Positions 24,174 through 51,176 of a stretch of DNA of 64,000 nucleotides are shown here, piece by piece. The position numbers and the translations under genes are program-made. This DNA comes from Candidatus Kapaibacterium sp. (GTDB taxonomy: Bacteria > Bacteroidota > Ignavibacteria > Kapaibacteriales > UBA2268), in NCBI GenBank assembly GCA_963665665.1, contig OY762428.1, positions 2,880,001 through 2,944,000 on the forward strand, written 5' to 3'. Every line of letters begins with the position of its first letter. The first letter of the stretch is position 1. The notes beneath the pieces are model-generated. The model had not been told where the DNA came from and made no database searches. It saw nothing but the letters and a program-made list of their open reading frames with translations.

Positions 24174-24218
24174 GCAATGTATTTGATAGATGTGTATGAT
24201 TACAGGTATTTAATGCTT
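24174..24218 (-). promoter_or_regulatory. Putative phage late promoter, copy 1 (tape measure gene)
   Basis: Minus strand CATTAAATACCTGTAATCATAC-N12-TACATTGC; matches the five other copies. Confidence 0.6.
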
Positions 24219-24238
24219 GAATTAAATACAATTTATTC

Positions 24239-25531
24239 ATGATTATAATAAGAAAGATGAATAAACCTATACAGCTGTGGGAATATGATGAAATAACTGA
24301 TCCAAATTTACTTGAGATTCTTAAAAAAGAAATAAAAAAGAAAGAGTCTCATTATAAGGATTATTTTACTTTATCTTGGGGAAGCACTTTTAAACCCAAT
24401 GGATACTGTGGATCTTTTGCATTCAATGGAGAAACTTATAGCATCTTACCAAAAATTGAAGGAAAAGGAGATGATGACTGGGATGATGTAAGGAACCTCT
24501 CCTATCTTACTTATATGTTTCTAAAAGCCGAGAATATTGATTTAAAAAATGAAGACATTAGCAATGCTATGAATAGGGAAAGGCTTTCACTCTATGATGT
24601 CTTAATAAAAATATTTACGAACAAATTGCTACCAGAACTGCAAAAAGGTATTCATCGTGAATACGTAAGCAAACGTGATAATGTTAATAAGATCAAAGGC
24701 CGTTGGCTAGTTAGAAAGCATATTACAAAGAATTACTTCAATGAGAAAATATATTGTGAATTTGATGAGTTTTCCGAAAATAACCGGTTGAACAAGTTGT
24801 TTCTTTATGCCGCAAAAGTACTTAAACCACAAAGCCAAGAAACCAGGAAAGACTTGAGAAGAATTGAGTTGGTTCTTGACGAAGTTGAATATGAAGTAAT
24901 AGATGTAAAAAAATTCAATTATTCATTTCATCGAATGAATAAACGCTTTGAGAAATCAGCAAACCTTGCGTTATTATTACTTCGTTATTTACTCCCAAAC
25001 TTTTCTGGTGGGAGTAAGAATAGTTTTATATTCCTATTTAAAATGCACGATGTATTCGAAAGATTCATTGCTAATATTCTTAAGGATTTGGAGCCTGAGT
25101 TGGACGACAGAGAAGTATTAATTCAGCCCCCAAAATATGATAAAGATAACGATTTAAATATTAAACCTGATATGGTAATAAAGAAAGATGATCGGGTAGA
25201 ATTAATTATTGATACGAAATATAAGCTTTTTACAGGTAATCCTACACCAGGAGATAAATATCAGATGTATGCTTATGGTATGAGTTATGATTTTCAAAAT
25301 AATAGAAATCGCTCTATTCTTCTTTTGTACCCTGAGAAAGAAGGGAATGAACAAAAAGAAAGAGATTTTCATTTACAAGGAAATGTTGATGAAAGCCATG
25401 TTGATCTTTATGTCGAGAAGATAAATGTTAAGACTGATAGTAAGATTGTAGGTTTTGATCAATATATTAGTGATATAAAAGATAGATTGAAAGAAATTAT
25501 TGAATCACAAATAAATAGGTATAAAAAATGA
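24239..25531 (+). CDS. mcrC: McrC family nuclease subunit (cargo)
   Basis: ILPKI, CEFDEFSENN.LN, FKMHDVFERFI, IKPDMVI..IIDTKYK, D.YQMYAY, LLYP. Confidence 0.88.
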   Translation: MIIIRKMNKPIQLWEYDEITDPNLLEILKKEIKKKESHYKDYFTLSWGSTFKPNGYCGSFAFNGETYSILPKIEGKGDDDWDDVRNLSYLTYMFLKAENIDLKNEDISNAMNRERLSLYDVLIKIFTNKLLPELQKGIHREYVSKRDNVNKIKGRWLVRKHITKNYFNEKIYCEFDEFSENNRLNKLFLYAAKVLKPQSQETRKDLRRIELVLDEVEYEVIDVKKFNYSFHRMNKRFEKSANLALLLLRYLLPNFSGGSKNSFIFLFKMHDVFERFIANILKDLEPELDDREVLIQPPKYDKDNDLNIKPDMVIKKDDRVELIIDTKYKLFTGNPTPGDKYQMYAYGMSYDFQNNRNRSILLLYPEKEGNEQKERDFHLQGNVDESHVDLYVEKINVKTDSKIVGFDQYISDIKDRLKEIIESQINRYKK

Positions 25532-27246
25532 AATTTGAAGAAAAAGTTTTACTGCTTATAAATAGTGGTAATTATAATTATTTGGCTAATAGTGATGAAT
25601 TCTATTTCGAAAAAGCAGTGGAGCAGTTTCGAACATTTATGAAATTTGAAATAGATGATAATGAAATCAATGAATTAATTAATGAATTTAATGAAATAAA
25701 AGGATTCAAAGAATATTTAGATCAACTCGACAATGATTCAATTAAGTATAAACTTTTTAACCTTTTAGGTAAAGTAATTGCTCATATTGATTATCATGCT
25801 GCAAATAAATATGAATTAAACAGTTACAATGACAAGAGGGTTATTGCAAAATCAATGGTGAGACAAACCGACTGGATTAACCATTTACTAAAATATAAAT
25901 TATCAAACAACTTAAATGTTTTTTCAGAATCCACTAAAAATGCAGTTCTTTATTTAATGAACCCAGCTGAGAGAATAACCATTCTATCTGATAATCAAAG
26001 AAAAGCTATTTCAAAATCAATTCTTAAAACAACATATAACTCTGAATCATTTGACCAGGAGATTATCGAGAAAATCGGATTCCCCAAATCAAAAATTATC
26101 AATAATGATAACATTGGCTATATAACTTCAATAATGCTCTATTCTGATTTGAAAAATTATTGGCAACCTGATGAACACAGTAATAATTTACAACTTAATA
26201 ACGACATAAAAAAAGAAAATCTCTATCCAAAAAATATCATTCTATACGGCCCTCCTGGCACTGGTAAAACTTATCTTCATAAATATTTGATAAATCAACT
26301 TGAAAATTCTAAATCTGATTCTGATGTTTTCAAAGTAATTGATTCTCTTAAGAGTGTCCCAAAGGGTGAAAACTCTTTTATTGATGAGCTTGAAGATCGT
26401 TACGATTTTGTAAGTTTTCATCAGTCATATTCATATGAGGACTTTGTTGAAGGTTTTAGACCTGTCGCCCCAAAAAAGGTAAATATTAAAGAAAATGACA
26501 GTGATGAAGGTAATACTTCAAGTTTAAATATAGAATTAAGAAATGGTATTTTCAAAAAAATGGTTGATAAGGCTAAAAATAAAAAAGAGAATTATTATCT
26601 GGTAATTGATGAGATTAACCGCGGTAATATTTCTAAAATCTTTGGCGAATTAATTACCTTAATTGAAGAAGATAAAAGGTTGGGAGCTAAAAATGAATTA
26701 AAAGTGTCATTACCATATTCTTCTGACAAGAACGAAATATTTAAAGATTTTGGAGTACCTAAAAATCTATTTATAATCGGAACTATGAATACAGCCGATA
26801 AATCTATTGCTCAAATAGATGTTGCTTTAAGACGTAGATTTACTTTTGTCAGGATTGATCCCAGGCCGGATTTAATTGAGCCAAATCCTATTTCTAAAGA
26901 GGGATGGAAAAATTTAGATATTCGAGAAGAATATAAGTCAAATAATGATGATAGGAGCTATAAATGGACTACTGATCCAAAAGACCTACAAGAATGGTTT
27001 ATCAACCTCAATATATTTATTGAAAGTAAATTAGGAAAAGACTATCTAATCGGCCATAGTTATTTCATGAAAGTTGACTCTGATCAAGAGTTACAGTTTG
27101 TTCTTAAATACAAAATCATACCTCTCATGGAAGAATATTTCTTTAATGAGGATAAAAATACTATTGAAGATATTGCGAAGTATTGTAGCATAAGATTGAT
27201 AGAGAAAGAATTAACAAATCAAAATGATGATAAGAGTCCTGACTGA
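25528..27246 (+). CDS. mcrB: McrB family AAA+ GTPase with unrecognised N-terminal domain (cargo)
   Basis: YGPPGTGKT, FHQSYSYEDFVEG, IDEINRGN, GTMNTADKS, ALRRRF, GHSYF; ATGA overlap with mcrC. Confidence 0.92.
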   Translation: MKFEEKVLLLINSGNYNYLANSDEFYFEKAVEQFRTFMKFEIDDNEINELINEFNEIKGFKEYLDQLDNDSIKYKLFNLLGKVIAHIDYHAANKYELNSYNDKRVIAKSMVRQTDWINHLLKYKLSNNLNVFSESTKNAVLYLMNPAERITILSDNQRKAISKSILKTTYNSESFDQEIIEKIGFPKSKIINNDNIGYITSIMLYSDLKNYWQPDEHSNNLQLNNDIKKENLYPKNIILYGPPGTGKTYLHKYLINQLENSKSDSDVFKVIDSLKSVPKGENSFIDELEDRYDFVSFHQSYSYEDFVEGFRPVAPKKVNIKENDSDEGNTSSLNIELRNGIFKKMVDKAKNKKENYYLVIDEINRGNISKIFGELITLIEEDKRLGAKNELKVSLPYSSDKNEIFKDFGVPKNLFIIGTMNTADKSIAQIDVALRRRFTFVRIDPRPDLIEPNPISKEGWKNLDIREEYKSNNDDRSYKWTTDPKDLQEWFINLNIFIESKLGKDYLIGHSYFMKVDSDQELQFVLKYKIIPLMEEYFFNEDKNTIEDIAKYCSIRLIEKELTNQNDDKSPD

Positions 27247-27330
27247 AGAGATGTTTTATCAAAAATTGAGCAACATCATAATCCAAATGAATCAAGAAAA
27301 AAACTTACTATACTAAATAATCAATTTAAA

Positions 27331-27606
27331 TTGGAATATGGATCCCCAAAAAGGGAATTTCGAAGTAAAAAGTTTGACAATGAAAACGAATTAATAATAT
27401 ATTTAGCATACTTTCTCGAAAATGCTTATTGGGAAGAGATTAAAAGTGATAAACAAAATAAGACAAAATTTGAAATAAAACTCTCAAAAAATGAAGTTTT
27501 TGGAACAGGTTATTATGGATCTAAAGTTGATATTAATAAAACGAAAAAAGGTTTCAAAGCTGTATTAAATAGTCTAAAAATAATTGGATTAGACATGAAA
27601 AGGTAA
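27331..27606 (+). CDS. Hypothetical protein, in frame with mcrB after a single TGA
   Basis: TTG start only; the same frame is open from the mcrB stop (27247) to 27606. Confidence 0.45.
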   Translation: MEYGSPKREFRSKKFDNENELIIYLAYFLENAYWEEIKSDKQNKTKFEIKLSKNEVFGTGYYGSKVDINKTKKGFKAVLNSLKIIGLDMKR

Positions 27607-27622
27607 ATTAAAATAAACAGTT

Positions 27623-27647
27623 AGCAGAGCTTCGGCTCTGCTTTTTT
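27623..27647 (+). terminator. Rho-independent terminator of the mcr cassette
   Basis: AGCAGAGC-TTCG-GCTCTGCT followed by T-run. Confidence 0.85.
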
Positions 27648-27978
27648 ATTTACTAATCATCTGCTCAATACTATTCATCCCCTCCAAAAACAAACTCTGC
27701 CTAACTTCATTGTGTTTAGTAACATCCCCCTTAGCCAGAGCAGTAAGATACCAAATACCGATTCTCGCCCGGCTGAGACGGTGATAAAGTTCTCCGGGAT
27801 TGAAGCAGTTCTCTATTTTTTCCTGCTCCTCGATCAGCCTTCTTTGTCTAAGCTCCCTTGTACTGTCTTCTGAAAAATCGGCAACAACATTTCTATCCCG
27901 TTCTTCTTTCTTTCGCCTTGCAAGATCGCTGATACGAGAGGTTTCTTCCCGATACCGGTAAAAAAATCCGATACGCAC
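27646..27978 (-). CDS. Tail assembly chaperone T-part (likely -1 frameshift extension)
   Basis: Overlaps 27834-28307 in the -1 frame; this frame opens only a few codons before GAT TTT TTT. Confidence 0.6.
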   Translation of the reverse strand: MRIGFFYRYREETSRISDLARRKKEERDRNVVADFSEDSTRELRQRRLIEEQEKIENCFNPGELYHRLSRARIGIWYLTALAKGDVTKHNEVRQSLFLEGMNSIEQMISK

Positions 27979-28307
27979 TCCTTCAGGTTATTCAGGTGCT
28001 TAATAGGAAGTGATTTTATGAATTGTTCGGTTTCTATTTCTGCTTTGTCCTTGTTGAAAGGCTGTTTGGCATTATCTTTCATTTCTCTAAGCAGGTAACG
28101 GGCAACAATAGTCAGCCATTCCGCCCCTCCGGATTTTACAATCTGCCTGAAAGATTCCGCTCCGGCCTGCAACTGATTATACTTGAATTCCCCGGCTTCC
28201 CGGGCAAGTTCCGCCTGCTCAATAGTCAATTGGTAGAAGTCATATTTATATTTCTTTCCTTCATACTCAAATGTTTTTGCCTCGATCGGCTTGTGTTCTT
28301 CATTCAT
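27834..28307 (-). CDS. Tail assembly chaperone G-part (putative)
   Basis: Last-but-one late ORF before the tape measure gene; DFF slippery motif. Confidence 0.6.
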   Translation of the reverse strand: MNEEHKPIEAKTFEYEGKKYKYDFYQLTIEQAELAREAGEFKYNQLQAGAESFRQIVKSGGAEWLTIVARYLLREMKDNAKQPFNKDKAEIETEQFIKSLPIKHLNNLKECVSDFFTGIGKKPLVSAILQGERKKNGIEMLLPIFQKTVQGSLDKEG

Positions 28308-28810: not shown

Positions 28811-28812
28811 AA

Positions 28813-29223: not shown

Positions 29224-31655
29224 GCCTGTACCAGTCCGCTTTCAAATGGGAATTCAGTGATATCAAGGATAAAGCTCTTCTCGGAATCTATTTTGCCAAG
29301 ACAGAGTATCATGTCTTCGTTTGCTGTTGGCGTTTCAAGTATTTCCTCAGTAATATTAGTTTCGATTAGGTTAGTCCTTGCAAATATCTGTCCACTGATA
29401 TTAGTAAAACTGTATCCATCGTAATATACCCGGCCGCTTATCTGGACAATTATTTTATCTCCGGTAGTTCCATTCTCTTTAGCAATGCCGATTGTCTTAT
29501 TCTGATATCCGCTATAGCTCAGGGATTTTGCCAGTTTGCCATTATCCAACAGCATTACAGCATCTCCGGCAAGGATTTCCTCGTTATCCTCCACATCATA
29601 ACTTTCGATAACAACCGAATCATCTGACAGAAAACCGAACTGATTGCTTGTGAACATGAAGAGTGGCAATTGCCCTTCATCGCCGTCCCACCAGCCAAAA
29701 GCAAAACGCTCGAGAGAATGCAGTTTGAGCTTGGTTTCAGGTTTCTGCAGGTTGATTTCAATTCCAACGACCACATAATCCCGCACCACCTGTTCCTCAA
29801 TCCATGTCCCGTCATACCTTTTTACTGTTTCAGCAAGTTTGATTTTCGAGCCAAGAGATATATTCTTCCATGAAGGATTCGAGCCGTCAGCATTCTTTGA
29901 AAAGCCGTTCCAGAAAGGCACTGTCAGACTGTACTCAGTTTCATAATACTGCTTGTCCCTTGACAGAATGTAATTCACATACTTTGTCAGGGAATCGAAA
30001 TCCATATCGCTGTCATTTATCTTAGCGAAAACCTTTGATGCAGGCCTCCAGACCGGAGTTGTACCGAGCCTGCCTATCTGGTTTGCTTTGATCGGGGCAG
30101 TCTTCAGATAGATTCCTGAATGAAGCCTTTCAGTTGCAGCGCTGTTGCCATTTCCGGGAGCATTCGCAAGGCTATATAGCCCGTATGTATCCCAGGAAAC
30201 ATTATTCTGTGTTATATTCATGGGAGCAGTTTTAAAGGCATGACCACCATAGCTGTTAACCGCATCAAGAGTGTGGGTAATTACTGAAGTAGTGAGCAGA
30301 AGCCTTTCTGACTCAATGCCTTTTTTCTCTTTTGCATACTTCCTTTCCTGATCGGCATCCTGAAATTTCTTTGATGGAAGCGGTTCGTTGGTATTGGCTT
30401 TATTGATAATCTCATCAAATTCATCAACGGCCAAGTTGTTTCCCAGCCCATAAAATTCATTCGACTCCTTAGTAATCACCGAGCTTGTATCAAAACCTGC
30501 TTCCTCAGCTCCAATAAGATAAGTATATTCATCCTCTACAAGCCCTTTTCGGGACTTAAATTCTATGTTGATGCTTGTTCCTGATGTGTATGATATAAAC
30601 AGATAACAGGCAAATGACCGGGCAATCTCAAAGAGCAGGTCTGAAACATTGTCGATATTCTTGAAGGAATAGGATTTCTCGCTCGAAACCTGATTCTTCT
30701 GCCATTCCTCTTGCTGAGTGTTACCCAATGAAGGATCTATCATCTTCCGGTGAATAAAAGGTGCGCTCCAATCTACCCCGGAATCTGAATTTGAGAGCTT
30801 CAATTCAATTCGTACCGTCTGTTCTGTCTTTACTTCCGTTACATCAATATTAAATTCTTCCTCTAATTCAAAAGATACAGGTGAAGACTGGATACCAAGT
30901 GATTTTTCAACAAGGTTCAATGCCATATTCGTATTTGTTAACTGGGCAATTATCTCGGAAGCTTTATCCAGGTAAAGGTCAATTACCTTATAAAGATTAC
31001 CAAGATGGCAGAAGTAAGCATAAGGAGTAACGACGCTGGAAGTTGAATAGGCAAGCCTGTAATTGAAAATATTCTTTATCGATGACCAGTTCTCAGCTTC
31101 AAATCTTTCATAAATATTTGAAACCGGAGTTCCGGACATATCTTCAATATTTCCGGTCAGCTTAACCTGATCGAGAATGGAAATATCGAAGCTGTATGCA
31201 GAAAGCTTGTACTCCCTTTTTGGATTGACAATATACTCGTATTCCTGACCTTCCCAATATTTATCATCCCCACTTATTTTATTACCTATTTTTCCAATAA
31301 AAAGCATATTGGTAAGGCTTGCAGTCTCACCGAAGAACAAAGCACAGTAGCGGTTTACCTTGATATTCGCTGAATCAAGAACAAAATACATAGCTTTGAA
31401 ATCATCTTCACTCTGGCAGGTCAGATGAGAAACGGAAAAAGGCAGTTCGTCAATAGCATAACTGCCTTCCTCAGTATTCAGATCTTTTTTTACAGATTCA
31501 AGCATGAAAATATCAGTCTCTGAACCAATATCCTGAAATAATTCAGTATAGGTATCTGAAACCGCAAACAGTACCGATTGAACGCCGAAAAGGTATTCTC
31601 TATATTGATATTTCTGGAAGAATCTCATAGAAAGCCAACTAATTTCTTTAATCAT
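29220..31655 (-). CDS. Large phage structural (tail tip/hub-like) protein
   Basis: 811 aa; hub-like LGSKIKL..YVVVGIEINL segment; C-terminal ILAGDAV..IGIA..G..IIVQISG beta domain. Confidence 0.55.
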   Translation of the reverse strand: MIKEISWLSMRFFQKYQYREYLFGVQSVLFAVSDTYTELFQDIGSETDIFMLESVKKDLNTEEGSYAIDELPFSVSHLTCQSEDDFKAMYFVLDSANIKVNRYCALFFGETASLTNMLFIGKIGNKISGDDKYWEGQEYEYIVNPKREYKLSAYSFDISILDQVKLTGNIEDMSGTPVSNIYERFEAENWSSIKNIFNYRLAYSTSSVVTPYAYFCHLGNLYKVIDLYLDKASEIIAQLTNTNMALNLVEKSLGIQSSPVSFELEEEFNIDVTEVKTEQTVRIELKLSNSDSGVDWSAPFIHRKMIDPSLGNTQQEEWQKNQVSSEKSYSFKNIDNVSDLLFEIARSFACYLFISYTSGTSINIEFKSRKGLVEDEYTYLIGAEEAGFDTSSVITKESNEFYGLGNNLAVDEFDEIINKANTNEPLPSKKFQDADQERKYAKEKKGIESERLLLTTSVITHTLDAVNSYGGHAFKTAPMNITQNNVSWDTYGLYSLANAPGNGNSAATERLHSGIYLKTAPIKANQIGRLGTTPVWRPASKVFAKINDSDMDFDSLTKYVNYILSRDKQYYETEYSLTVPFWNGFSKNADGSNPSWKNISLGSKIKLAETVKRYDGTWIEEQVVRDYVVVGIEINLQKPETKLKLHSLERFAFGWWDGDEGQLPLFMFTSNQFGFLSDDSVVIESYDVEDNEEILAGDAVMLLDNGKLAKSLSYSGYQNKTIGIAKENGTTGDKIIVQISGRVYYDGYSFTNISGQIFARTNLIETNITEEILETPTANEDMILCLGKIDSEKSFILDITEFPFESGLVQA

Positions 31656-31661
31656 TAACTG

Positions 31662-31717
31662 GCAATCTAAATGTTCAGTATGTATTTTTACAGGTATTGA
31701 GTGTCAATAGGAAATGA
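31662..31717 (-). promoter_or_regulatory. Putative phage late promoter, copy 2
   Basis: Minus strand TCATTTCCTATTGACACTCAATACCTGTAAAAATAC-N12-TAGATTGC. Confidence 0.7.
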
Positions 31718-31840: not shown

Positions 31841-32740
31841 TTATTGACGTTCTGGAGGTAAAATTATATCTCCTTCATCATAAGATGCTATTGACAAAAC
31901 ATCTTGAATATAAGATTGAAATGGAGGTGGATATAGCTGTGTGGAAGTTAAATGTTCATATAAAGATAGCATTAATAAAATTAATGCATGGGCATCACAA
32001 TCTTCTTTATTGAACTTGAAAGAGACTAAACCAGACTTAGGGTCTTTTTTTTCGTAAGATTTAATGGCTATCGGACCTAAATTTATGCCGTTTTTGATAA
32101 ATTCCAATTTTGATCTAACAATAATTTTTCCATCTAAACAGCAAATAATATTAGGAATTAATTCTTTGTTTACATTTGTAAATTCGCTTTTTAAAGAACC
32201 TTTATCCATATCATTCGAATCGCCAATAATCACAAAATGAAATAAATCATTCTGTCTTTCACCTTTTCTATTTATTGATAAATTATCTCCAAGACTAACT
32301 CCATTTCCAACATATGATAAGGGAACTGATTCTCTTGCCATACCGTTCATAACTTGATTAATTGCATTAACAAAGTTTTCTAAATACTTTTTGGATTTAT
32401 AATAAGTTGATTTGATCTCACCAATAGCATATACAGATTCATATGGAAAATATTCAGTCCCATTTTCACTATCATAAAGAATCTGAGTTGTCGTAGAATC
32501 GGCAATAATTATATCAAATTGAGGGCTAACGGATAAATTCTTATCCACTATGTGGCCATGCCCAATGTAGAATTTTTGGGGCAATCTTTTTTTCAAAAAC
32601 TTTCTAATAGGTATTTCAAGTTCATCTCCACTAGCATCGATGTCACCAGTATTATGAATGATTTTTGATGAATTTCTTGCTGATTTTATTCTCTCCACTT
32701 CTTGTTTGTAGATATTTTCTATTGGAAATTTTTTCATCAT
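31841..32740 (-). CDS. DUF6602-like PD-(D/E)XK nuclease-fold protein (cargo, candidate defence gene)
   Basis: GDELE..IRKFL..LP..GHIVD..SPQFDIII..PYESVYAIGEIKS pattern; AT-rich. Confidence 0.7.
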   Translation of the reverse strand: MMKKFPIENIYKQEVERIKSARNSSKIIHNTGDIDASGDELEIPIRKFLKKRLPQKFYIGHGHIVDKNLSVSPQFDIIIADSTTTQILYDSENGTEYFPYESVYAIGEIKSTYYKSKKYLENFVNAINQVMNGMARESVPLSYVGNGVSLGDNLSINRKGERQNDLFHFVIIGDSNDMDKGSLKSEFTNVNKELIPNIICCLDGKIIVRSKLEFIKNGINLGPIAIKSYEKKDPKSGLVSFKFNKEDCDAHALILLMLSLYEHLTSTQLYPPPFQSYIQDVLSIASYDEGDIILPPERQ

Positions 32741-36931: not shown

Positions 36932-37002
36932 AGTTTACAGTTGACAATTGATAGTGGACAGTTTTTCTTTAACTATCAACTATCCACTGTAAACTATCAA
37001 CT
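36932..37002. repeat. Inverted heptamer arrays (AGTTGAY.. / ..ACTATCA)
   Basis: AGTTTAC AGTTGAC AATTGAT AGTGGAC AGT ... ACTATCA ACTATCC ACTGTAA ACTATCA ACT. Confidence 0.85.
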
Positions 37003-37044
37003 ACTCTTGTATTATTACAGGTATTGAGTGTGGGTAGGGAGTGA
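36989..37044 (-). promoter_or_regulatory. Putative phage late promoter, copy 3
   Basis: Minus strand TCACTCCCTACCCACACTCAATACCTGTAATAATAC-N12-TAGTTTAC. Confidence 0.75.
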
Positions 37045-37184
37045 GGTTTATATTTCTACAAATCCAGTTAATTCTCATGGAAAGCTATGGCTCTTATAAA
37101 AAGAAAAAGCTGAACCTTTTATTGAGATTCCAGTTTTTCTGTGAATACCTTGGCAGATGAGGATTTGAAGAAAAATTAGCATTG

Positions 37185-38546
37185 CTACTTTAAAAATTTA
37201 AATTCTACCCTTCTGTTTTTTGCTTTGCCTTCATCAGTTTTATTATCTGCAATAGGTTTAGATTCTCCATATCCAATAGCAATAAGATTATTTTTGTTAA
37301 TACCTTTTTTGATTAAATAGTTTACAACTGATTGGGCCCTTGATTGTGACAAACGTTTGTTGTAGGAGTCGCTGCCATCACTATCAGTATGACCGGAAAT
37401 TTCTACCTTAACATTTGGATATTCCTTAAGCAATTCAACTAATCTATCGAGTTCGGAATATGATTCGGGCCTCAAATCCGATTTATTATATTCAAAAAAG
37501 ATATTGTTTACAGTAATACTCCCATCCCAGGGTTTCTTCATTATAATGTCTTTAGTTATGGTAGTTTCTTTCTTTTGACCTTTCAACATTGCATTATCAG
37601 ATATGCTTGAGTATCCCTTCTTTTGAAAATAAAATGCATAATTCGAGCCTATAGGAACTTTGAATTCATAGCTCCCATCAGACGGCGAACTATTTGTAGT
37701 TCCTATTTCAACATTTTTATAATTCTCGCTCATCAGCTCCCACCCTACTTTAACTTCCAAAGGCGATCCGTTCGTCGTTTTTACAGTTCCTTTTACGGTT
37801 GCAAAGACAGGCGTTCCTTCGCCAAAAAGCTTTAGTATTGCAGGCTGCGTCTGGTTTTCATAACTTACGATTATTCTGCCGTCCGTCCTTCCGTCCTTCA
37901 CGGGAGCAAAACCGATATTCAATTCTTTGGTTTCATTCGGAGCCAAAGAAAAAGGAGTAAATTTATCGGTTAAAGAAAACTGCGAACCGGACTCGTTATC
38001 GATCGAAATTGAAGTAATTTTTATCGGACTTGTACCTATATTTTTTATCGCTTTCGATATAGCCCTGTCCGATTGAGAAAATATCGGGACTTTGCCAAAA
38101 TCGACAATTCCGGAATAAACTTCGATTTTCGCCTCGACGCTCTCGCCCGAGATTTTATAGATCAGCGTATCGGCCTGCGTTACTATAACGACGTCGGCCG
38201 TTTTCATTCCTGAGCTTTGCGGATTAAAGCGAAACTCGATATCCCTGCCAGAATTCGACGGAATAGAAAAGGGGAACACATACGTCAAAAGCCGGAAATC
38301 ATTAGCATGATCTCCGGCAATAGTAATATTATCAATCCTAACAGCAAACTTTCCCGTATTTTGTAAATAACCGGCAAAAACGGAATCCTTTTTTGTATTA
38401 TTCAATACTTGCCCGAAATCAATATCCATTGCCGACGCTTTGGGAACGATAATTGAAAGTCGATTGTCTGATTTGTCCTGGATTTGAGCTAAAGTCTCAA
38501 TATGTAGAGACAACAGCAAAACAATATATAAAATTAAATATTTCAT
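37185..38546 (-). CDS. Secreted OmpA-C-domain protein with two ASH/choice-of-anchor-D Ig domains (cargo)
   Basis: Signal peptide; DIDFGQV/VDFGKV Ig repeats; NIFFEYNKS..EISGHTD..LSQSRA..GYGESKP..NRRVEF. Confidence 0.88.
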   Translation of the reverse strand: MKYLILYIVLLLSLHIETLAQIQDKSDNRLSIIVPKASAMDIDFGQVLNNTKKDSVFAGYLQNTGKFAVRIDNITIAGDHANDFRLLTYVFPFSIPSNSGRDIEFRFNPQSSGMKTADVVIVTQADTLIYKISGESVEAKIEVYSGIVDFGKVPIFSQSDRAISKAIKNIGTSPIKITSISIDNESGSQFSLTDKFTPFSLAPNETKELNIGFAPVKDGRTDGRIIVSYENQTQPAILKLFGEGTPVFATVKGTVKTTNGSPLEVKVGWELMSENYKNVEIGTTNSSPSDGSYEFKVPIGSNYAFYFQKKGYSSISDNAMLKGQKKETTITKDIIMKKPWDGSITVNNIFFEYNKSDLRPESYSELDRLVELLKEYPNVKVEISGHTDSDGSDSYNKRLSQSRAQSVVNYLIKKGINKNNLIAIGYGESKPIADNKTDEGKAKNRRVEFKFLK

Positions 38547-43131: not shown

Positions 43132-43153
43132 TATTCACTTTTCATTTCTTCAA

Positions 43154-43184
43154 ACTTTCAACTGTCAACTATCAACTGTCAACT
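43154..43184. repeat. Heptamer tandem array (ACTDTCA)
   Basis: ACTTTCA ACTGTCA ACTATCA ACTGTCA ACT. Confidence 0.85.
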
Positions 43185-43601: not shown

Positions 43602-43631
43602 CCTTCACTAAAAGTATTTTCAAATCTCTTT

Positions 43632-43741: not shown

Positions 43742-43806
43742 GATTTTTTGATTAACATTTGTCACTTTGTAGTTATCAGTTTTTTTAATTCTTGAAGGAA
43801 TATAAC

Positions 43807-44610
43807 ATGAGACGATTTTTAGCCTTTATAGTATTTGTTTATTTGTTTTCCCCAATAGACAATATTGCTCAAATAATTGACATCAATTATTCTAATTTAA
43901 AAGGGGTAAATGCCATAACTGATACAGTAAAGAAAGAATCAAAAGATATTGAACTTTTGAGTCGTGGTTTTATGGACATTTTTTCTAATGGCAAAATGCA
44001 AAGTACAGCTCAAATATTAAAAATTAATATTGGAGAAAAAGATGGCTTCTATTTTCCTTTCTTTCTATTATTGGGGGCTTCAGGTGATGGTCTTGGTGAA
44101 CAAGAATTGAATGAAAATACAATAGCAAATTTGTTAAACCCATTAGGTGGTATTATTAATGGATCATTTAATGGCAAGAATAATTTATTGTCCTCAGAAT
44201 CTGGGATAACTTCATTAAATTTAGCATATCAAATTTCAGGAAAGTTAATAAATGCTCAAGATTCACTATCAGGAAACTCCAAATTTTTGGGAGTTGGTTA
44301 TGGTAATATAGGTCTCTTTTTTCAAACAGGAGCTTGGGATCCTGATGATGCTGGAAATATGGGAGTCTTTTGGGTTCAAGTAAAAGCCGCAGGTTCATTA
44401 GCTTTTGATAATGCAGTGATTAAAGAAGTCTTTGGAAACTCAGTAATTGATAGTTATTTTATTGGTTATTCCATAGATTTAGGTATTGAAATTGATAAAA
44501 AAATTAATTTGAAAGCTGGAATTTATCAATATTTAAACAGCCAAGATATAATTCTTATGAAAGATCCTGTTTTTAAATTTTCTTTGGATTACAATCTTGA
44601 AAATGATTGA
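43807..44610 (+). CDS. Secreted/outer-membrane hypothetical protein (cargo)
   Basis: Signal peptide MRRFLAFIVF..IAQ; amphipathic beta strands; opposite strand to flanking phage genes; AT-rich. Confidence 0.7.
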   Translation: MRRFLAFIVFVYLFSPIDNIAQIIDINYSNLKGVNAITDTVKKESKDIELLSRGFMDIFSNGKMQSTAQILKINIGEKDGFYFPFFLLLGASGDGLGEQELNENTIANLLNPLGGIINGSFNGKNNLLSSESGITSLNLAYQISGKLINAQDSLSGNSKFLGVGYGNIGLFFQTGAWDPDDAGNMGVFWVQVKAAGSLAFDNAVIKEVFGNSVIDSYFIGYSIDLGIEIDKKINLKAGIYQYLNSQDIILMKDPVFKFSLDYNLEND

Positions 44611-44801: not shown

Positions 44802-44807
44802 TTCCAT

Positions 44808-45854
44808 TTATATCACCATAGCCGAAATAACCGCATTAGGTTCATGGATAGTCGGCAATGATTTCTGTTCAACTTTCCAGTCCAAAGCTGTTTTGTCATC
44901 GTTAGTATTAGTTTCCACCAATAGTTCATTCTGATAGATTTTCAGATTGCCGTTCTCGATCCTGTAAATTGGCCCGAAATGAACTTTGAAGCCCAAGGAT
45001 TTACTTGCCACCATGATAGCCTTCTTAGGGTCAATCATATCGGTAGTGACATCATCGGTATCTGTGTATTGCTGGTTATACTCGAAAATATCAATACCCA
45101 TTATCCTGCCGATATAAATACCAGAACGGGTATTCGATTGGGTCATGTCAAGCACGCCGATACGGTTGTTGTTGGTATCCAGTTCCTTCTTGATTGAATC
45201 ATGAGATACAAAGGCATCTGCAGCTTCACTGCCAAGAATCATGATATCAGCGTTGACACCACTTCGTTTCATGATGTCCCTTTTCCATGCCCTGAGTTTC
45301 TTCAAAGGTTTGGCAGTGGCATCGCTCCATTTATCTGCTGCAGCAAGCGTAACAAGATGAACGCCGTCTTCAAACTCGAAATCAACTGAGAATTCAATAT
45401 TATCCTGGCTGACAATAACTTCACCGGTTGAAAGAGCTTCACAAGCCATCTGCTCACGTCTTCGGATAATCCTGTTTTTCAGTTCTTCCAGTTCCTGGAG
45501 GATCATCTGATTTGCAAGCCTTGTCCTTTCTTCAGGGCTCGTCACGTAGATATTGCCGATTGACTTGTAGTTTGCAAGCTCAAGGGCAGTGAAGAGTTTC
45601 TTCTCGAAAGTCCTTGGCAGGGAGATGGTTTTGATTTCCTTGCTCAATTTCTTGATCGGCAAAGCACCTTCATGCTGATTTACGAACTGAGCCAGCTTAT
45701 TTGAGCCTGTGATGATCTCAATGTCGATTTTATCCGCTGCATGGAACTGCCTGTTTTTGAAGAAAGTATTCAAAACGAACGGTTCAATTACCTTCGACCT
45801 GTTAATCGCATTCGTCAGGCTCCGGGATTCAAACATATCAATTAATGCGCTCAT
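44808..45854 (-). CDS. Major capsid protein (Phage_cap_E family)
   Basis: LT.AIN..FF..LAQFV..RREQMACEAL.TG..VDF..W..P..Q.SLP pattern. Confidence 0.88.
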   Translation of the reverse strand: MSALIDMFESRSLTNAINRSKVIEPFVLNTFFKNRQFHAADKIDIEIITGSNKLAQFVNQHEGALPIKKLSKEIKTISLPRTFEKKLFTALELANYKSIGNIYVTSPEERTRLANQMILQELEELKNRIIRRREQMACEALSTGEVIVSQDNIEFSVDFEFEDGVHLVTLAAADKWSDATAKPLKKLRAWKRDIMKRSGVNADIMILGSEAADAFVSHDSIKKELDTNNNRIGVLDMTQSNTRSGIYIGRIMGIDIFEYNQQYTDTDDVTTDMIDPKKAIMVASKSLGFKVHFGPIYRIENGNLKIYQNELLVETNTNDDKTALDWKVEQKSLPTIHEPNAVISAMVI

Positions 45855-46219
45855 GCCTGTTCCTCCTTAATCACTATTGAACCATTGTTGTATACTCCTG
45901 TGGATATTTCCTGTGCCGCTGTCAGGGCTGATTTCAGGAACTCCCCGTGAACGTACATGAAGCCTTTGCCGTCGCTGTCTGTAGCATCCACATTGCAGCC
46001 GAGTATTCCGACTAAGTTTTCTGTTCCATCAACAACTGTATTGTCCCAGATGTAATATTTGCCTGTGGCTGTTTCCTTGCCGAGGCAGGTTCCCCTTGTC
46101 AGGTTCTGACCGGAAGCGATGACAATATTGGTGATCTCCATATTTGGATGGAGACTTGCAGGTATGTCAACCGAAGGATCCATGTCAGCAAGTTTTGTAA
46201 AACCAAGATCGATTCCCAT
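45851..46219 (-). CDS. Head decoration protein
   Basis: IASGQNLTRGTCLG..DGTE..GIL..YVHGEF. Confidence 0.82.
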   Translation of the reverse strand: MGIDLGFTKLADMDPSVDIPASLHPNMEITNIVIASGQNLTRGTCLGKETATGKYYIWDNTVVDGTENLVGILGCNVDATDSDGKGFMYVHGEFLKSALTAAQEISTGVYNNGSIVIKEEQA

Positions 46220-47364
46220 TATTTATCTCCTTCGTTTTTGTAGTATTCGTCGATAAATTTATTCTGCTCTTCGAAGCTGTTGACGTTACCGGCTAAGGCT
46301 TTGTCAGCTATCTCTGAAAACTCCACCTGTGTCGGGAATGATTCGATCAGCTTTTTGATTATATCTTCGCCCCTGAGGGTTTTGGTAACTCCGTTCTCTG
46401 AGAATTCAAAGCCCTTGTCATGCCCTCTGGCAGTCTCAAAAGCCAGGCGGACAAGGTTCTTCTGTGCCGGGACTAATCGCCCTGTCTGTGAGCTGAAATA
46501 CTCATTGAATTTCATCTCCCTGTTGTCGTTTTCAAGAGATTCAAGTTTTATCTGCATCTCCTGATACTCCCTTGACTGGGTTAGGTCAATTTTGTTTTTT
46601 CCATCATTTGCTTCAACAAGCTTAGGTGGATTTTCCTCTTTCCTGATGTGCCTGTCTTTGATTTTTTCAAGCTCCTCAGCTGTCTGGTTGGCAATCTCTT
46701 CGTTGAAAGTCTGACCAAGCCATGTAAGGAGGTCTTCGAATAGTTTAGCATAGTTCTCCGGCATACTGCCTCCCTGGAAATTTATTTTTTGTGAATTGTC
46801 TTCTGAAAAATCTTCGGATTTTGAGGGAGAGAAATATATATTTCTTTTCTTTTCCTTTCTTTCCTGATTGTTTTTGTTGCCCTTCTGTTCATCATCCGTT
46901 GAACAGGTGTTCGATTCTGTTCGAGCATTCGTTAAATTCTCTTCAAACATCAGTTCAACAAATGCTTCATCACTGTTGAAATTTGTGTCTTTCAAACCCT
47001 TAACTGCCGGAGGAACTGCTCCCAAATATCCAACGTGGCGGAGCATCATATCCGGGTACAGGGCTATGGAAACTTTCTTGTACTTTCCGTCCTTAATAAG
47101 TTGTTCGAACTCTGGATCAAGCTGATTGAATTTAGCAAGCAACCTTTCGCCATCACGTTTCAATTGCTCAACCCAGGCATAAGCAGGAGAGTTATTCACA
47201 GGATGTCCAATTACTACAGGAGCTTCATGTTTTTCATCAGGAAGCTGATTATTGTATTTTGCTGCAATAGTGTCGAGGTCTTCAATAGTCCAGTCTTTCT
47301 CTTGCCCGCCTGCATCTGTGTGCAGACCGGCTTTAAAGACCTCCTTCCATATATCCTTTGGCAT
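46219..47364 (-). CDS. Mu gpI-like prohead protease/scaffold
   Basis: EVFKAG.H, APVVIGHP..PAYAWV, G.YKKVSI, LRHVGYLGA.PPAVKGL; internal GGGAGG-ATG at 46764. Confidence 0.88.
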   Translation of the reverse strand: MPKDIWKEVFKAGLHTDAGGQEKDWTIEDLDTIAAKYNNQLPDEKHEAPVVIGHPVNNSPAYAWVEQLKRDGERLLAKFNQLDPEFEQLIKDGKYKKVSIALYPDMMLRHVGYLGAVPPAVKGLKDTNFNSDEAFVELMFEENLTNARTESNTCSTDDEQKGNKNNQERKEKKRNIYFSPSKSEDFSEDNSQKINFQGGSMPENYAKLFEDLLTWLGQTFNEEIANQTAEELEKIKDRHIRKEENPPKLVEANDGKNKIDLTQSREYQEMQIKLESLENDNREMKFNEYFSSQTGRLVPAQKNLVRLAFETARGHDKGFEFSENGVTKTLRGEDIIKKLIESFPTQVEFSEIADKALAGNVNSFEEQNKFIDEYYKNEGDK

Positions 47365-47389
47365 TTTCCACCTTTATAGTTTTACCTCT

Positions 47390-47446
47390 GCAAAGCTATT
47401 TATGGCGGTTGTATTGGGCAATGCACTTAATGTGGGTATGGAGTGA
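47390..47446 (-). promoter_or_regulatory. Putative phage late promoter, copy 5 (head operon)
   Basis: Minus strand TCACTCCATACCCACATTAAGTGCATTGCCCAATAC-N12-TAGCTTTGC (canonical TAnnTTTG). Confidence 0.78.
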
Positions 47447-47457
47447 AGGGAAAATAT

Positions 47458-47488
47458 AAAAAACCGGAATCTATTTTTGAGATTCCGG
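47458..47488 (-). terminator. Terminator of the WG-repeat gene
   Basis: CCGGAATCT/AGATTCCGG stem with T-run on the minus strand. Confidence 0.75.
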
Positions 47489-47645
47489 CCTGTCCTTTTA
47501 TTACTTATTATTAAAATGGATTTGGAGATGGCGGTTTATATATTAATTTTTAAACTATTCTTTATTTAATACCACATTTTTATAAATGTTTTTGACGTTT
47601 TTTATGCTCACCTTTGTTCTAATCATTACAAATTTAGAAGAATTT

Positions 47646-50600
47646 TTACATACAGTTAGGATCTGGCATTTCATCCACATATCCATGAATATCATTTTTA
47701 GAATGAATTTGTATGTAAACGATTGGAATAATAATCCTTCCAGTTTTATCAATAAAGCCGTATTTCCCATCTTTTGCTACTTTTGCCAGTCCTTTATAAA
47801 AATAATCTGCATAGTCATATTCAACAGGTACTAATACTTTGCCGCTTTTATCTATAAAGCCGTATTTCCCATCTTTTGCTACTTTTGCTAGGCCTTCGCT
47901 GAAAGAAGAGACATGATCATATTCAACAGGTACTATTACTTTACCGCTTTTATCTATAAAACCCCACTTATCACCTTTTCTTACTCTTGCAAAACCTTCA
48001 TGGAAAAAAATGCATCCATCATATTCAACAGGTACTATTACTTTTCCGCTTTTATCAATAAAACCGTATTTCCCATCTTTTTCTACTATTGCTAGGCCTT
48101 CGCTGAAAGAAGAGACATAATTATATTCAGGTACTATTACTTTGCCGCTTTTATCTATAAAACCGTATTTCCCATCTTTTTCTACTATTGCTAGGCCTTC
48201 GCTGAAATAAGAGACATAATTATATTCGAAAGGTACTATTACTTTGCCGCTTTTATCTAAAAAGCCGTATTTGCCATCTTTTTCTACTCGTGCAAGACCT
48301 TCGTTAAAAGAATCGACATAATCATATACAAGGGGTATTACTAGTTTACCCCTTTTGTCTATAAACCCATATTTCCCATCTTTAGAAACTTTCGAAAGCC
48401 CATCGCTGAAACCATAGAAAAACTCATTATCATAATCAAGCGACATAATTTCCTTACCGCCTTTATTTATAATAAATCTTTTCCCATCTTTCATAACTTT
48501 AGCGTAGTCATCTTCATAGAAATGAAATTTTTTATCATATATTAATGGAATTACTACTTTACCGTTTTTATCAACCGATCCCCATTTTCCTTTTTTTTGA
48601 ATTTGAATTAAATCACCATCTCTGAAACAAGAGACTTTATTATATTTCAATGGAATGACAAATTTTCCTTTCTTATTAATAAAGCCTAAACTACTTCCGA
48701 CTTCCACTTCTGCAAGACCGTCGCGGAAAAAATCAATCCAATCATATTCGAAAGGTATTACGACTTTACCACTTTTATCAATAAAGCCATATTTCCCATC
48801 TTTTTTTACTCCTGCAAGACCTTCTCTGAACCAATTTGCATCTTCATATTCGAAAGGTATTACGACTTTACCACTTTTATCAATAAAGCCATATTTCCCA
48901 TCTTTTTTTACTCCTGCAAGACCTTCTCTGAACCAATTTGCATCTTCATATTCGAAAGGTATTACGACTTTACCACTTTTATCAATAAAGCCAAATTTTC
49001 CATCTATTCTTACACTTGCAAGACCTTCTCTGAACCAATATGCTTCTTCATATTCAAATGGAATAATTTCCTGACCATTATTTTTAATATCAATATAACC
49101 CCATTTCTCTGATTTTTTTGCTAGAACAATTCCTTCTGAAAGTGAATTGTATTCTATTCTTTCGTATTCAGGTGGAACTATTGTTTTCCCAGTTCTATCA
49201 ATAAGTCCTCTACCTCCATTTGTTTTTCCTACTTCAAAATATTCATTATATGATCCAGTAATTGAACGATATTTAAAATCAACAACTACTTCACCTAAGC
49301 TGTCAATTATTCCATCATACCCTTTTGTATCTGTTACATGTGCCAAACCATTATGATAATTAAAGGCATTAATATATATAAATGGAATTACGACTTCTCC
49401 TTTTTTATTAATATATCCATACTTTCCATCCTTTTTGACATATGCTAATCCTTCAGAGAAATTTCCCACTGAAGATTTATCATATATAGGTTTATATTTA
49501 GATTCATAAATATCATATTTAATAGGAATGACGACTTTTCCAGTAGAATCTATATATCCGGTTTTACCGTATTTTTCAACCCTAACCAGCCCTTCGTTGT
49601 AGTTACCAATAAAATCATAGTCTAATGGAAAAACTACAGCTCCCGAGGTATCTATATATTTCCATACTCCTTCTTCTTTAACTCTTGCAATGCCTTCTTG
49701 AAAATCACTCACTTCTTCATACTTAGTGGCAATTACACCTTTCCCTGTTGTGTCTATAAACCCCCACCCATTCAAATAACCGCCTTTTGCATGTTTTACT
49801 TTAGCAAAACCATTTTTAAAATTATTAATAATTTCATATTCGACAGGTAATACTTCTTCACCTTTGTTATTTATTATCCCATATCGATAACAACGACCTT
49901 GACAACATATACCTTGAACCCTTGCTAATTTTTGATTTAAAAATTCAATGTTAGAGTAATCAAAACTAAATAACTCATCACCGCTTTTATCAATGAAAGT
50001 CTTTTTTCCACCTATTATTACCTGGGCGATCCCATCACTGAAATCTCCAGCTTCGTCATAATCAAAAGGTATTACAACATTGCCACTCTTGTCAATAAAT
50101 CCACACTTTCCATTTTTTCTCACCTTGGCAAGTTCTTCTGAAAAGTTAAAAGGATAGTCATAAGGGATATAAACCCCGAGAGATTCCAAATTAATAACAA
50201 TATTCCCACTTTTATCTATAAAGCCGTATTTCTCATCCTTATTTACTGCTGCAAGACCTTCATGAAAATTCTCAGCCCTGTCATACTCAAACGGAATGAC
50301 TATTTTACCGGTTTTATCTATAAAGCCATATTTATTTCCTTTACGTACTCGTACAAGATTATCTGAAAATTCCCAAACTGCAGCATATTCAGAATAGAAA
50401 ATGATTTTTCCGTTTTTGTCAATAAAGCCCCACTTATCATCTTTTTTTACTTTTGCCATTCCATTTTTGAAATCATGAGCTCTTTCAAATTCATAAGGAA
50501 TTACTTCATTGCCGCTCTTGTCAATAAAGCCATACTTCCCATCTTTTTCTATAGCAGCTAAATCTTCTGAAAAATCATTGCTTTTATAAAATTTGAAAGA

Positions 50601-51050
50601 TATTAACAACTTTCCTTTTTTATCTATGTATCCTGACTCTTTATTATTATAAACTCTTGCGAGTCCACAACTAAAATCTCTTGCCTCAGTGTATTTTATT
50701 GGAATTACTACTTTGCCGCTTCTATCTATAAAGCCGTAATCACGATCTTTTTTCACTAATGCAAGTTCATCGCTGAAAGATCCGGCCTTATCATATTCTA
50801 AGGGAACAACAATTTCTCCATCATTATTAATAAAGCCCCATTTCCCATTACTACTTACTCTCGCAAGCCCTGAATGAAAATCACCCACAAATTCGAATTC
50901 TTCTCTAAAAGTAAGAAAGACATCTCCATCTTTATCAAGAAAATGGAATTGCCCTTTTCCATCATTTGCAATAAAAGCAATATCTTTATTATTATCACAT
51001 GCAGAGATTAGTATTATCATAAAACTTAAAATAATTGAAATTCTGGTCAT
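47646..51050 (-). CDS. WG (KWG Leptospira) repeat lipoprotein (cargo)
   Basis: Lipobox ISAC; about 30 repeats of F.EGLA.V.KDGKYGFIDKSG.VVIP.EY. Confidence 0.9.
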   Translation of the reverse strand: MTRISIILSFMIILISACDNNKDIAFIANDGKGQFHFLDKDGDVFLTFREEFEFVGDFHSGLARVSSNGKWGFINNDGEIVVPLEYDKAGSFSDELALVKKDRDYGFIDRSGKVVIPIKYTEARDFSCGLARVYNNKESGYIDKKGKLLISFKFYKSNDFSEDLAAIEKDGKYGFIDKSGNEVIPYEFERAHDFKNGMAKVKKDDKWGFIDKNGKIIFYSEYAAVWEFSDNLVRVRKGNKYGFIDKTGKIVIPFEYDRAENFHEGLAAVNKDEKYGFIDKSGNIVINLESLGVYIPYDYPFNFSEELAKVRKNGKCGFIDKSGNVVIPFDYDEAGDFSDGIAQVIIGGKKTFIDKSGDELFSFDYSNIEFLNQKLARVQGICCQGRCYRYGIINNKGEEVLPVEYEIINNFKNGFAKVKHAKGGYLNGWGFIDTTGKGVIATKYEEVSDFQEGIARVKEEGVWKYIDTSGAVVFPLDYDFIGNYNEGLVRVEKYGKTGYIDSTGKVVIPIKYDIYESKYKPIYDKSSVGNFSEGLAYVKKDGKYGYINKKGEVVIPFIYINAFNYHNGLAHVTDTKGYDGIIDSLGEVVVDFKYRSITGSYNEYFEVGKTNGGRGLIDRTGKTIVPPEYERIEYNSLSEGIVLAKKSEKWGYIDIKNNGQEIIPFEYEEAYWFREGLASVRIDGKFGFIDKSGKVVIPFEYEDANWFREGLAGVKKDGKYGFIDKSGKVVIPFEYEDANWFREGLAGVKKDGKYGFIDKSGKVVIPFEYDWIDFFRDGLAEVEVGSSLGFINKKGKFVIPLKYNKVSCFRDGDLIQIQKKGKWGSVDKNGKVVIPLIYDKKFHFYEDDYAKVMKDGKRFIINKGGKEIMSLDYDNEFFYGFSDGLSKVSKDGKYGFIDKRGKLVIPLVYDYVDSFNEGLARVEKDGKYGFLDKSGKVIVPFEYNYVSYFSEGLAIVEKDGKYGFIDKSGKVIVPEYNYVSSFSEGLAIVEKDGKYGFIDKSGKVIVPVEYDGCIFFHEGFARVRKGDKWGFIDKSGKVIVPVEYDHVSSFSEGLAKVAKDGKYGFIDKSGKVLVPVEYDYADYFYKGLAKVAKDGKYGFIDKTGRIIIPIVYIQIHSKNDIHGYVDEMPDPNCM
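48742..48993. repeat. Identical 102-bp tandem duplication inside the WG gene (~2.5 copies)
   Basis: TCATATTCGAAAGG recurs at 48742, 48844 and 48946 with identical intervening sequence. Confidence 0.9.
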
Positions 51051-51120
51051 GATTACCTCAAGGATATTTTCAAAAGTTTTTATTTTCCCTTAATTTACTA
51101 AATATTTGTTAACTCTCAAA

Positions 51121-51176
51121 CACCCAATCCCCACACTGAGTGCATTTCATAATACCCGGTCTTTGATTTGTTTTGC
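51121..51176 (+). promoter_or_regulatory. Putative phage late promoter, copy 6 (modification/packaging operon)
   Basis: CCCACACTGAGTGCATTTCATAATAC-N12-TTGTTTTGC; divergent from copy 5. Confidence 0.72.

Follow-up and report, generated by a model that had tools for sequence, protein, structure and literature searches.

A single activator serving several late promoters that lack an upstream core element is textbook logic, known already from phages Mu and P2. Phages P2, 186 and P4 have about four late operons, each with an upstream dyad and all read by the host holoenzyme together with one small zinc-finger activator (Ogr/B/Delta); the dyad is centred near -55, further upstream than in the element described below, and the activator family is unrelated to Mor. 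For Mu itself, late promoters have been described that carry a -10 element and no -35 element, with the C protein bound to an imperfect dyad centred at -43.5 (PMC2582627). Structural work places Mor and C on an A + B site just 5' of a non-optimal -35, where they form a tetramer in contact with both alpha-CTD and sigma region 4 (bioRxiv 10.1101/2025.05.02.651988). Here we compare these systems with a 64,000-nucleotide (nt) stretch of the genome of Candidatus Kapaibacterium sp. (assembly GCA_963665665.1, contig OY762428.1, positions 2,880,001 to 2,944,000), referred to as the window throughout, in which a first-pass annotation had picked out an element present in six copies in a prophage.

We describe the element, its specificity and placement, the conservation of two of its copies in related prophages, and the family of a candidate regulator. 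We assign a probability of roughly 60% to the reading that the six elements are activator-dependent late promoters of this prophage, which lies next to a tRNA-Phe gene, and that they are read via its Mor-like protein. Its novelty lies in the type of host promoter, in a site made of two units and in the link to cargo islands. In the literature searched, neither a regulon of this kind nor Mor-dependent promoters are described for this host group, in agreement with the statement in the first-pass annotation that no such regulon was known for this promoter type.

The repeated element

The prophage spans ~18.9 kilobases (kb) to past the right end of the window, and all six strings quoted in the first-pass annotation were found there at their expected places, each reading the same way as the gene that follows it. 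Each of the six copies (P1 to P6) is intergenic and points in the sense of the next gene, with its box 9-71 nt 5' of the start codon. The genes downstream are those for terminase/portal, protease/capsid, adaptor/endolysin, fibre-like proteins and tape measure, together with one block of open reading frames (ORFs) whose function is unknown. An element thus stands ahead of each virion-gene block, and its orientation matches the phage genes in 6/6 copies, as had also been claimed.

Positions are numbered with the box T at -12, following the analysis of Flavobacterium johnsoniae promoters (PMC6847099), and rest on a predicted start. On this scale the layout is a distal unit at -59..-50, a proximal unit at -46..-37, the triplet TAC at -27..-25, a 12-nt spacer and a box at -12..-4. 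P1 (51121..51176, -59..-4, plus strand) consists of distal unit CACCCAATCC, proximal unit CACTGAGTGC, TAC, the 12-nt spacer and box TTGTTTTGC; its start is predicted near 51180, and it heads the plus-strand packaging block at 51246-59825, which runs from a methyltransferase gene through PAPS-reductase-like, methylase, ParB-like, small and large terminase, Mu-type portal and Mu F-like genes to virion morphogenesis. The remaining copies are all on the minus strand. The P2 copy (47390..47445; CACTCCATAC / CATTAAGTGC / TAC / N12 / TAGCTTTGC; start predicted near 47386) heads the block at 44808-47364, with protease (46219-47364), decoration protein (45851-46219) and major capsid (44808-45854) genes. 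P3 (43632..43687; CACTCTCTAC / CACTCAATGC / TAC / N12 / TATCTTAGC; start predicted near 43628) heads 43601-40733, encoding a Mu gp36-like adaptor, a Gp37-like protein, small proteins and a CHAP endolysin. P4 (36988..37043; CACTCCCTAC / CACTCAATAC / TAC / N12 / TAGTTTACA; start predicted near 36984) heads the fibre-like block at 36928-32876, with genes for a fibre-like protein of 529 amino acids (aa) and then for proteins of 544 aa and 240 aa. P5 (31661..31716; CATTTCCTAT / CACTCAATAC / TAC / N12 / TAGATTGCC) heads 31655-27646, which comprises the ORF for an 811-aa protein and four small ORFs of unknown function. P6 (24173..24228; TATTTAATTC / CATTAAATAC / TAC / N12 / TACATTGCC; start predicted near 24169) heads the tape-measure gene at 18989-24157. 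The predicted start of P5, near 31657, falls just 2 nt 5' of the annotated ATG of the 811-aa ORF (31653-31669), so its mRNA would have almost no leader unless translation in fact begins at an ATG further downstream.

The regular expression CA[CT]TNA[AG]T[AG]C-N9-TAC-N12-TNNNTT has six matches on both strands of the 64 kb, exactly the six copies. In leave-one-out tests with a 59-nt weight matrix, the held-out copy was always the sixth-best match in the window, with scores from 46.9 down to 15.3 for P6, the most degenerate copy, and the top non-site position scored -0.1 to 11.6. Relatives were collected by a scan with a portal alignment, giving 65 loci with 10-kb flanks, so that the tail regions of the relatives fall outside these loci. 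A matrix from 15 unique promoter sequences, applied to 1,114,072 bases (the window and the 65 related loci) at a threshold of 12 bits, gave 19 matches scoring at least 12 bits, namely the 18 training sites and one additional copy, which the relative L005 has in the same intergenic region. No match reached 12 bits in three block-shuffles (maximum 9.0 bits), nor did this matrix find the element in the 59 more distant loci. As for the motif-frequency check suggested in the first-pass annotation, over the DNA covered here the element has six places only in a window that includes ~18.7 kb of host DNA, and none in the 59 distant loci. Taken alone, two sub-patterns are not significant in number, AATAC-N12-TA (18 matches, 10.2 expected) and CCCACAYT (5 matches, 2.8 expected). 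A matrix of the six window copies alone is over-fitted: of the 12 orthologous sites in relatives, no more than 3 score at least 15 bits with it, whereas intergenic alignment and a looser anchor recovered all 12.

The six closest loci have portals 73-74% identical to that of the window prophage and share its gene order. Their assemblies are labelled Kapaibacterium, Kapabacteria or Ignavibacteria, placed by the NCBI taxonomy in the Bacteroidota/Chlorobiota group. In all six the protease and first methyltransferase genes are divergent across ~250-350 nt, the WG-repeat gene of the window is absent, and orthologues of the P1 and P2 copies are present at equal spacing. At both divergent promoters the proximal unit (TAYTSRGTGC / CAYCRAGTGC) and the box (TTGTTTTG; TAGTTTTGC or TAAGTTTGC) are conserved, as is the distance of 28 nt between GTGC and the box, and the intergenic DNA around them varies. 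We take the P1 and P2 copies to be ancestral, as they form a back-to-back pair in the relatives. Three of these loci (L004, L005 and L006, ~4040-4180) contain extra copies of the unit, CTCAATAC / GTATTGAG, between the divergent promoters, up to five in L005, which suggests an activator-site array common to both promoters. Separately, the leader downstream of P1 contains a box TTGATACAG-N7-GCTG (51202-51221) that is found at the same place in L001, L003-L006 and L008 and is conserved in the window and five aligned relatives; RNAalifold gave no supported structure for it (-1.26 kcal/mol, no compensatory pairs).

Within the element, the proximal unit fits YAYTNARTRC in every copy and contains, again in 6/6, a 9-base-pair (bp) imperfect palindrome CAYTNARTG at -46..-38, centred at -42. 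The 10-mer is repeated 13 nt upstream, where matches average 6.8/9 over 16 sequences (7.2/9 in the window copies, 6.6/9 in relatives) and the background is 3.5 +/- 1.1; a possible third unit, near -34, falls below the level of the distal unit. The first-pass annotation had described a constant spacing and one dyad: the fixed N12 spacer stands, and the single dyad has to give way to two tandem units 13 nt apart, in an element longer than first described. Mean pairwise identity among the six copies is 0.57 in the distal unit, 0.52 at -36..-28, 0.61 in the -7 box, 0.28 in the 12-nt spacer and 0.29-0.33 in the flanks; the values of 0.76 for the proximal unit and 1.00 for -27..-25 are partly circular, because these two blocks belonged to the selection regular expression. 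The spacer is constrained in length and free in sequence, which argues for functional constraint rather than recent duplication. Two sub-types can be told apart, with ARTGCAT following the palindrome in P1-P3 (packaging/head genes) and AATACCTGTAA following it in P4-P6 (tail genes).

One multi-block motif at every late operon would also fit a dedicated alternative sigma factor, of phage or host, recognising the element in place of the primary sigma factor plus an activator. We regard this as very improbable. The 24 nt between proximal unit and box and the 12 nt between TAC and box do not fit a two-element promoter of the sigma-70 family, the downstream block resembles the host -7 box, and the visible phage DNA shows no sigma-like gene; as for sigma-54, an alignment judged by eye has no conserved GG 10 nt 5' of TTGC.

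The comparison with the host -7 box relies on what has been described for Bacteroidota promoters, which have a -33/-7 consensus. In the same analysis, F. johnsoniae promoters have T-12, A-11, T-8, T-7, T-6 and G-5, with 4-5 nt from the element to the start, and the -7 box matters more than the -33 element in Flavobacterium (PMC6847099). The promoter of the window's tRNA-Phe gene, one clean example, suggests that this host uses the same type: TTTG-N20-TAACTTTG (18682..18713, plus strand), ~30 nt 5' of the tRNA, has both elements. A scan for sigma-70-type promoters found no more sites than in shuffles, as expected for this host group. The Bacteroidota-type promoter invoked at first pass is thus matched at tRNA-Phe, with the reservation that the relatives are Kapaibacterium/Ignavibacteria and not classical Bacteroides; the relatives provide only 3 tRNAs in 26 loci. 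The full pattern TTTG-N19-21-TAnnTTTG occurs twice in the window, neither time at a late copy, and the TAnnTTTG octamer is under-represented in the whole window (48 matches, 71.7 +/- 8.6 expected). At the late copies, TAnnTT is present in 5/6 boxes, the sixth being TTGTTTTG, and TTTG ending near -33 in none (0/6), in line with the comparison made at first pass with Mu promoters that lack a -35. The copies therefore differ from the canonical housekeeping pattern of Bacteroidota, TTTG-N19-21-TAnnTTTG.

Palindromic units at every late promoter would suit a repressor equally well, as operators that silence otherwise constitutive late promoters in the lysogen, and the -7 box alone might suffice for such promoters if, as in Flavobacterium, the -33 element matters less (PMC6847099). 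However, the units lie at -59..-37, 5' of the polymerase core contact region and not over the -7 box or the start; five of the six boxes are off consensus, as weak promoters needing help would be; and no repressor-like gene is visible. We consider an operator role quite improbable.

Candidate activator and proposed mode of recognition

Under the reading as activator-dependent late promoters, the host primary RNA polymerase holoenzyme would read the copies through a degenerate -7 box (TAGnTTtGC-like), and the missing -33 TTTG would make a phage activator necessary. This activator would bind the two tandem 10-nt imperfect palindromes YAYTNARTRC, at ~-59..-50 and -46..-37, directly 5' of the missing -33, in the geometry of Mu Mor/C-dependent promoters. 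If it is the Mor-like protein, its synthesis would depend on the early (replication) operon, and the virion genes would come on after the replication genes. P3-P6 would each restart late transcription just past an inserted cargo island.

Among the conserved genes of the minus-strand replication block, the gene for this 90-aa protein (61975-62247, minus strand) comes last, directly after primase/helicase (62336-63904, minus strand), and it is the only transcription-factor-like gene seen from 18.9 to 64 kb. The protein matches phrog_836, 'late transcriptional activator', with an E value of 1.5e-9. It has 58 homologues, the full-length ones 61-87% identical and several with a precomputed PF08765 assignment, and all 22 aligned homologues match Pfam Mor at E up to 0.01 (best E 7.1e-8). 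Alignment of the homologue profile to Mu Mor with hhalign covers 61 columns (E 7.5e-4) and pairs the LGGITVSIP linker and the C-terminal helices; an N-terminal helical part (which serves dimerisation in the Mor family), a linker LGGxxVxIP with the GGxxxxIP strand and a C-terminal helix-turn-helix are thus present, as expected of that family. An AlphaFold monomer model (mean pLDDT 77.6, pTM 0.41) has helices at 4-12, 17-26 and 28-38, a low-confidence linker at 43-48, and helices at 52-62, 68-75 and 79-89. The helix-turn-helix region is nearly invariant across the 22 homologues of 61-87% identity, which matches the conservation of the proximal unit. From these comparisons we take the protein to be a distant member of the Mor family; the Mor/C-like label of the first-pass annotation is upheld in that form by the Pfam homologues, PHROG and hhalign. 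The relative L004, which has the element, encodes an orthologue with 79% identity, likewise after the primase gene.

The copies could also be activator-dependent late promoters that respond to another phage protein, encoded past 64 kb or by an unannotated small ORF, with the Mor-like protein controlling, for example, a middle step like that under Mor in Mu. The window ends in the early operon, so the visible set of regulators is incomplete; Mu employs two family members in a cascade (PMC2582627); and the Mor-like gene is tied to the element solely by position and family. Against this, neither the 17 unannotated phage ORFs (E up to 0.1) nor the other visible phage ORFs contain a further DNA-binding domain, and the element stands ahead of no regulator-like gene, so that no cascade intermediate is visible. 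We judge a different activator unlikely.

Several observations weigh against activator-dependent late promoters read by the Mor-like protein, beginning with the box. The full TAnnTTTG is found in just one of the six boxes, TAGCTTTGC of the P2 copy, and the TAnnTTTG box first proposed thus survives in a -7-like form, TAnnTT. Position -10 is G in four of the six boxes, a base that the F. johnsoniae housekeeping promoters reported in PMC6847099 hardly ever have there, and the P4 box sits inside an unrelated heptamer array. TAnnTTTG occurs 5' of genes 33 times in sense and 20 times in antisense in 21.3 kb, a weak excess, and little evidence speaks for this octamer as the -7 box of the host in general. 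Half-sites of 4 bp, 1 bp apart, make up the palindrome, and the units are 13 bp apart, unlike the 16-bp Mu dyad.

The same holds for parts of the evidence on the protein. Its own match to Pfam Mor (PF08765; 22.1 bits, E 1.5e-4) is below the cut-off of 24.9 bits, hhalign against Mu C is not significant (E 0.48), and a profile search of Protein Data Bank (PDB) sequences found neither Mor nor C. The top Foldseek match of the model is Mor (1rr7), at a non-significant E of 0.28 (TM 0.37), with the Mor and C complexes 9l0y and 9l0x at ranks 8 and 9. Among the six close loci, the Mor-like gene lies within the 10-kb flank of L004 only, and the window itself stops within the early operon, phage DNA past 64 kb lying outside it. 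Lastly, five distant prophages with a Mor-like gene 25-43% identical (L010, L018, L036, L041 and L046) have no recognisable element; L010, L011 and L018, distant loci with a Mor-like gene in the same identity range, are compact and differently laid out, and late promoters are not definable there. On balance, the elements very probably have promoter activity and probably depend on an activator; that this activator is the protein encoded at 61975-62247 is a circumstantial assignment that we favour slightly.

Cargo islands and prophage layout

Four cargo islands each have a copy, P3-P6, at their downstream edge. P3 comes after the opposite-strand gene at 43792-44610 (plus strand), which encodes an unknown 272-aa protein, and P4 after the minus-strand genes for an OmpA-domain protein (37185-38546) and a VWA / Fib_succ protein (38571-40664). 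P5 follows a gene for a DUF6602 / NucC-like PD-DExK nuclease (31841-32740, minus strand). P6 follows an island of McrBC-type restriction genes and a small ORF (24239-27606, plus strand) and is divergent from it. A further gene of this kind, for a WG-repeat protein (1134 aa, 26 WG repeats), is at 47646-51050 (minus strand). Against a reference guanine-plus-cytosine (GC) content of 0.414 +/- 0.02 for core phage genes, four of these five islands are low, at 0.26-0.32: the McrBC island at 0.26-0.30, the nuclease gene at 0.298, the 272-aa gene at 0.295 and the WG-repeat gene at 0.324. The exception is the pair ahead of P4 (OmpA 0.374, VWA 0.409), which is not clearly foreign by GC. A gene for a 676-aa protein with a weak HATPase_c_3 hint only (59854-61884, minus strand) also has a low GC content, 0.310.

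In four of four relatives (L001, L003, L004 and L005) the capsid gene runs directly into gp36, with no opposite-strand gene and no P3. The absence of both from these relatives points to their addition in the window's phage. At the same junction, where the window has 43792-44610, L006 (1-1404) has a different plus-strand ORF (9-1217), and the junction may be a recurrent insertion point. With this arrangement, the late promoter may be re-used to restart transcription where cargo breaks the virion operon, a proposal drawn from one genome and from the absence of P3 in four relatives. The wider proposition, that a Mor/C-type activator has been adapted to the divergent primary sigma factor and -33/-7 promoters of the Bacteroidota/Ignavibacteriota group and that the promoter is a portable restart module at the downstream edges of cargo islands, many of them closed by a terminator of one family, we put forward tentatively, as a possibility that we consider somewhat doubtful. 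If the portable-restart part were true, defence and surface cargo could be carried anywhere among the virion genes free of polar effects, and promoter copy number would track cargo load across the phage clade. Promoter copies after cargo islands suggest how phages keep virion operons working while gathering defence genes.

The neighbourhood of cargo also admits the opposite view, in which the copies are recombination scars or cassette boundaries that move with cargo and have no promoter role: four copies adjoin cargo islands, and a terminator family likewise repeats at cargo ends. Yet the P1 and P2 copies are present in 6/6 relatives with no cargo between them, orientation tracks the virion genes and not the cargo, and spacer length is fixed though its sequence is free. 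Scars of this kind are extremely improbable as an explanation.

The terminator family has three copies with a T run (37098-37133, 47453-47488 and 59719-59754), which close the OmpA gene ahead of P4, the WG-repeat gene and the 676-aa gene, respectively. The predicted strong intrinsic terminator that ends the WG-repeat gene (47461-47491, minus strand; a 12-pair stem and T run) lies 14 nt 5' of the P2 copy, and 47452-47528 and 59718-59794 are similar at 70% over 77 nt. The third copy overlaps the opposite-strand 3' end of the virion-morphogenesis gene. A tightly drawn pattern for the family matched just one copy in the window and is uninformative on the relatives.

Arrays of the heptamer AGTKGAN occur at 36932-37004, 43151-43184 and 53082-53184, with 14 overlapping matches where 0.02 are expected. 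They are confined to these three places, all in the late region, and none is present in the 65 related loci. Two of the arrays form long inverted pairs with 24-41-nt arms; one overlaps the P4 box and leader, and the largest is 5' of the methylase, ParB-like and terminase genes. Possibilities for their role include a site for a packaging or partition-type protein, or an RNA hairpin.

The left ~18.7 kb of the window contains ordinary cellular genes, among them those for NfeD, an MFS transporter, GroES and glutaredoxin. The host ORF at 2005-10530 encodes one 2841-aa protein with two methyltransferase regions and GT2, GT9 and GT4/GT1 glycosyltransferase domains. The tRNA-Phe gene (18745-18818) was the sole match of an Rfam scan. 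From this gene to the end of the tape-measure gene is ~170 nt (18745-18990), and this closeness suggests that the prophage integrated at the tRNA gene, which marks its left end. Searched against a phage collection, the portal has a best match of only 40% identity (BcepMu), and the Mor-like and 811-aa proteins have no match; an Atlas look-up gave a sub-threshold lead from the 811-aa protein to DUF5048 (0.88). Two overlapping small ORFs of the P5 block (157 and 110 aa; 27646-28307) resemble a pair normally found directly 5' of the tape-measure gene. The McrBC island and P6 now stand between this pair and the tape-measure gene at 18989-24157.

Comparison with described systems

Almost nothing is known of late-gene timing in temperate phages of the Bacteroidota/Chlorobiota group, whose hosts have a primary sigma factor that reads promoters unlike the E. 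coli model. The putative regulon offers six copies, a defined geometry and one candidate 90-aa activator, and could serve as a test case for how the Mor/C family recruits an unusual polymerase. If the reading is true, the genetic toolbox for these bacteria would also gain an inducible promoter together with its activator.

In its downstream block and predicted distance to the start codon, the element resembles canonical primary-sigma promoters of Bacteroidota, as far as these are described in PMC6847099, and fits their -7 element. It departs from them in the -33 TTTG (0/6), in the full -7 consensus (1/6) and in the G at -10 (4/6). The RinA/ArpU system of Gram-positive temperate phages is similar in that the genes for packaging and the virion are turned on by one small protein of the phage (PMC3152322). 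Unlike that system, in which one promoter 5' of terS drives a single long late operon, the prophage described here has six copies of its element, and the protein belongs to another family.

Mu is a further parallel. Both phages have several promoters (Pm; Plys, PI, PP and Pmom in Mu) with a common activator site and a downstream element only, and in both an imperfect dyad lies just 5' of the gap, centred at -43.5 in Mu (PMC2582627) and at ~-42 here on the predicted start. The two adjacent sites in the Mu cryo-EM structures (bioRxiv 10.1101/2025.05.02.651988) have a counterpart in the two units of the element. The activator gene of Mu, by its annotation, and the candidate gene here are both at the end of the early region, and the proteins probably belong to the same Pfam family, though they are only distantly related. 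The two systems also differ. The host polymerase here is of the Bacteroidota -33/-7 type and not -35/-10, and the site is a 9-bp palindrome repeated at 13 bp rather than one 16-bp dyad. The protein has 90 aa, compared with 129 and 140 aa for the two Mu proteins, and aligns with Mor at E 7.5e-4 and not significantly with C. The phage is non-transposing, with primase/helicase, a small terminase and a tRNA next to it, and a single family member is visible in it, with no Mor-to-C cascade seen.

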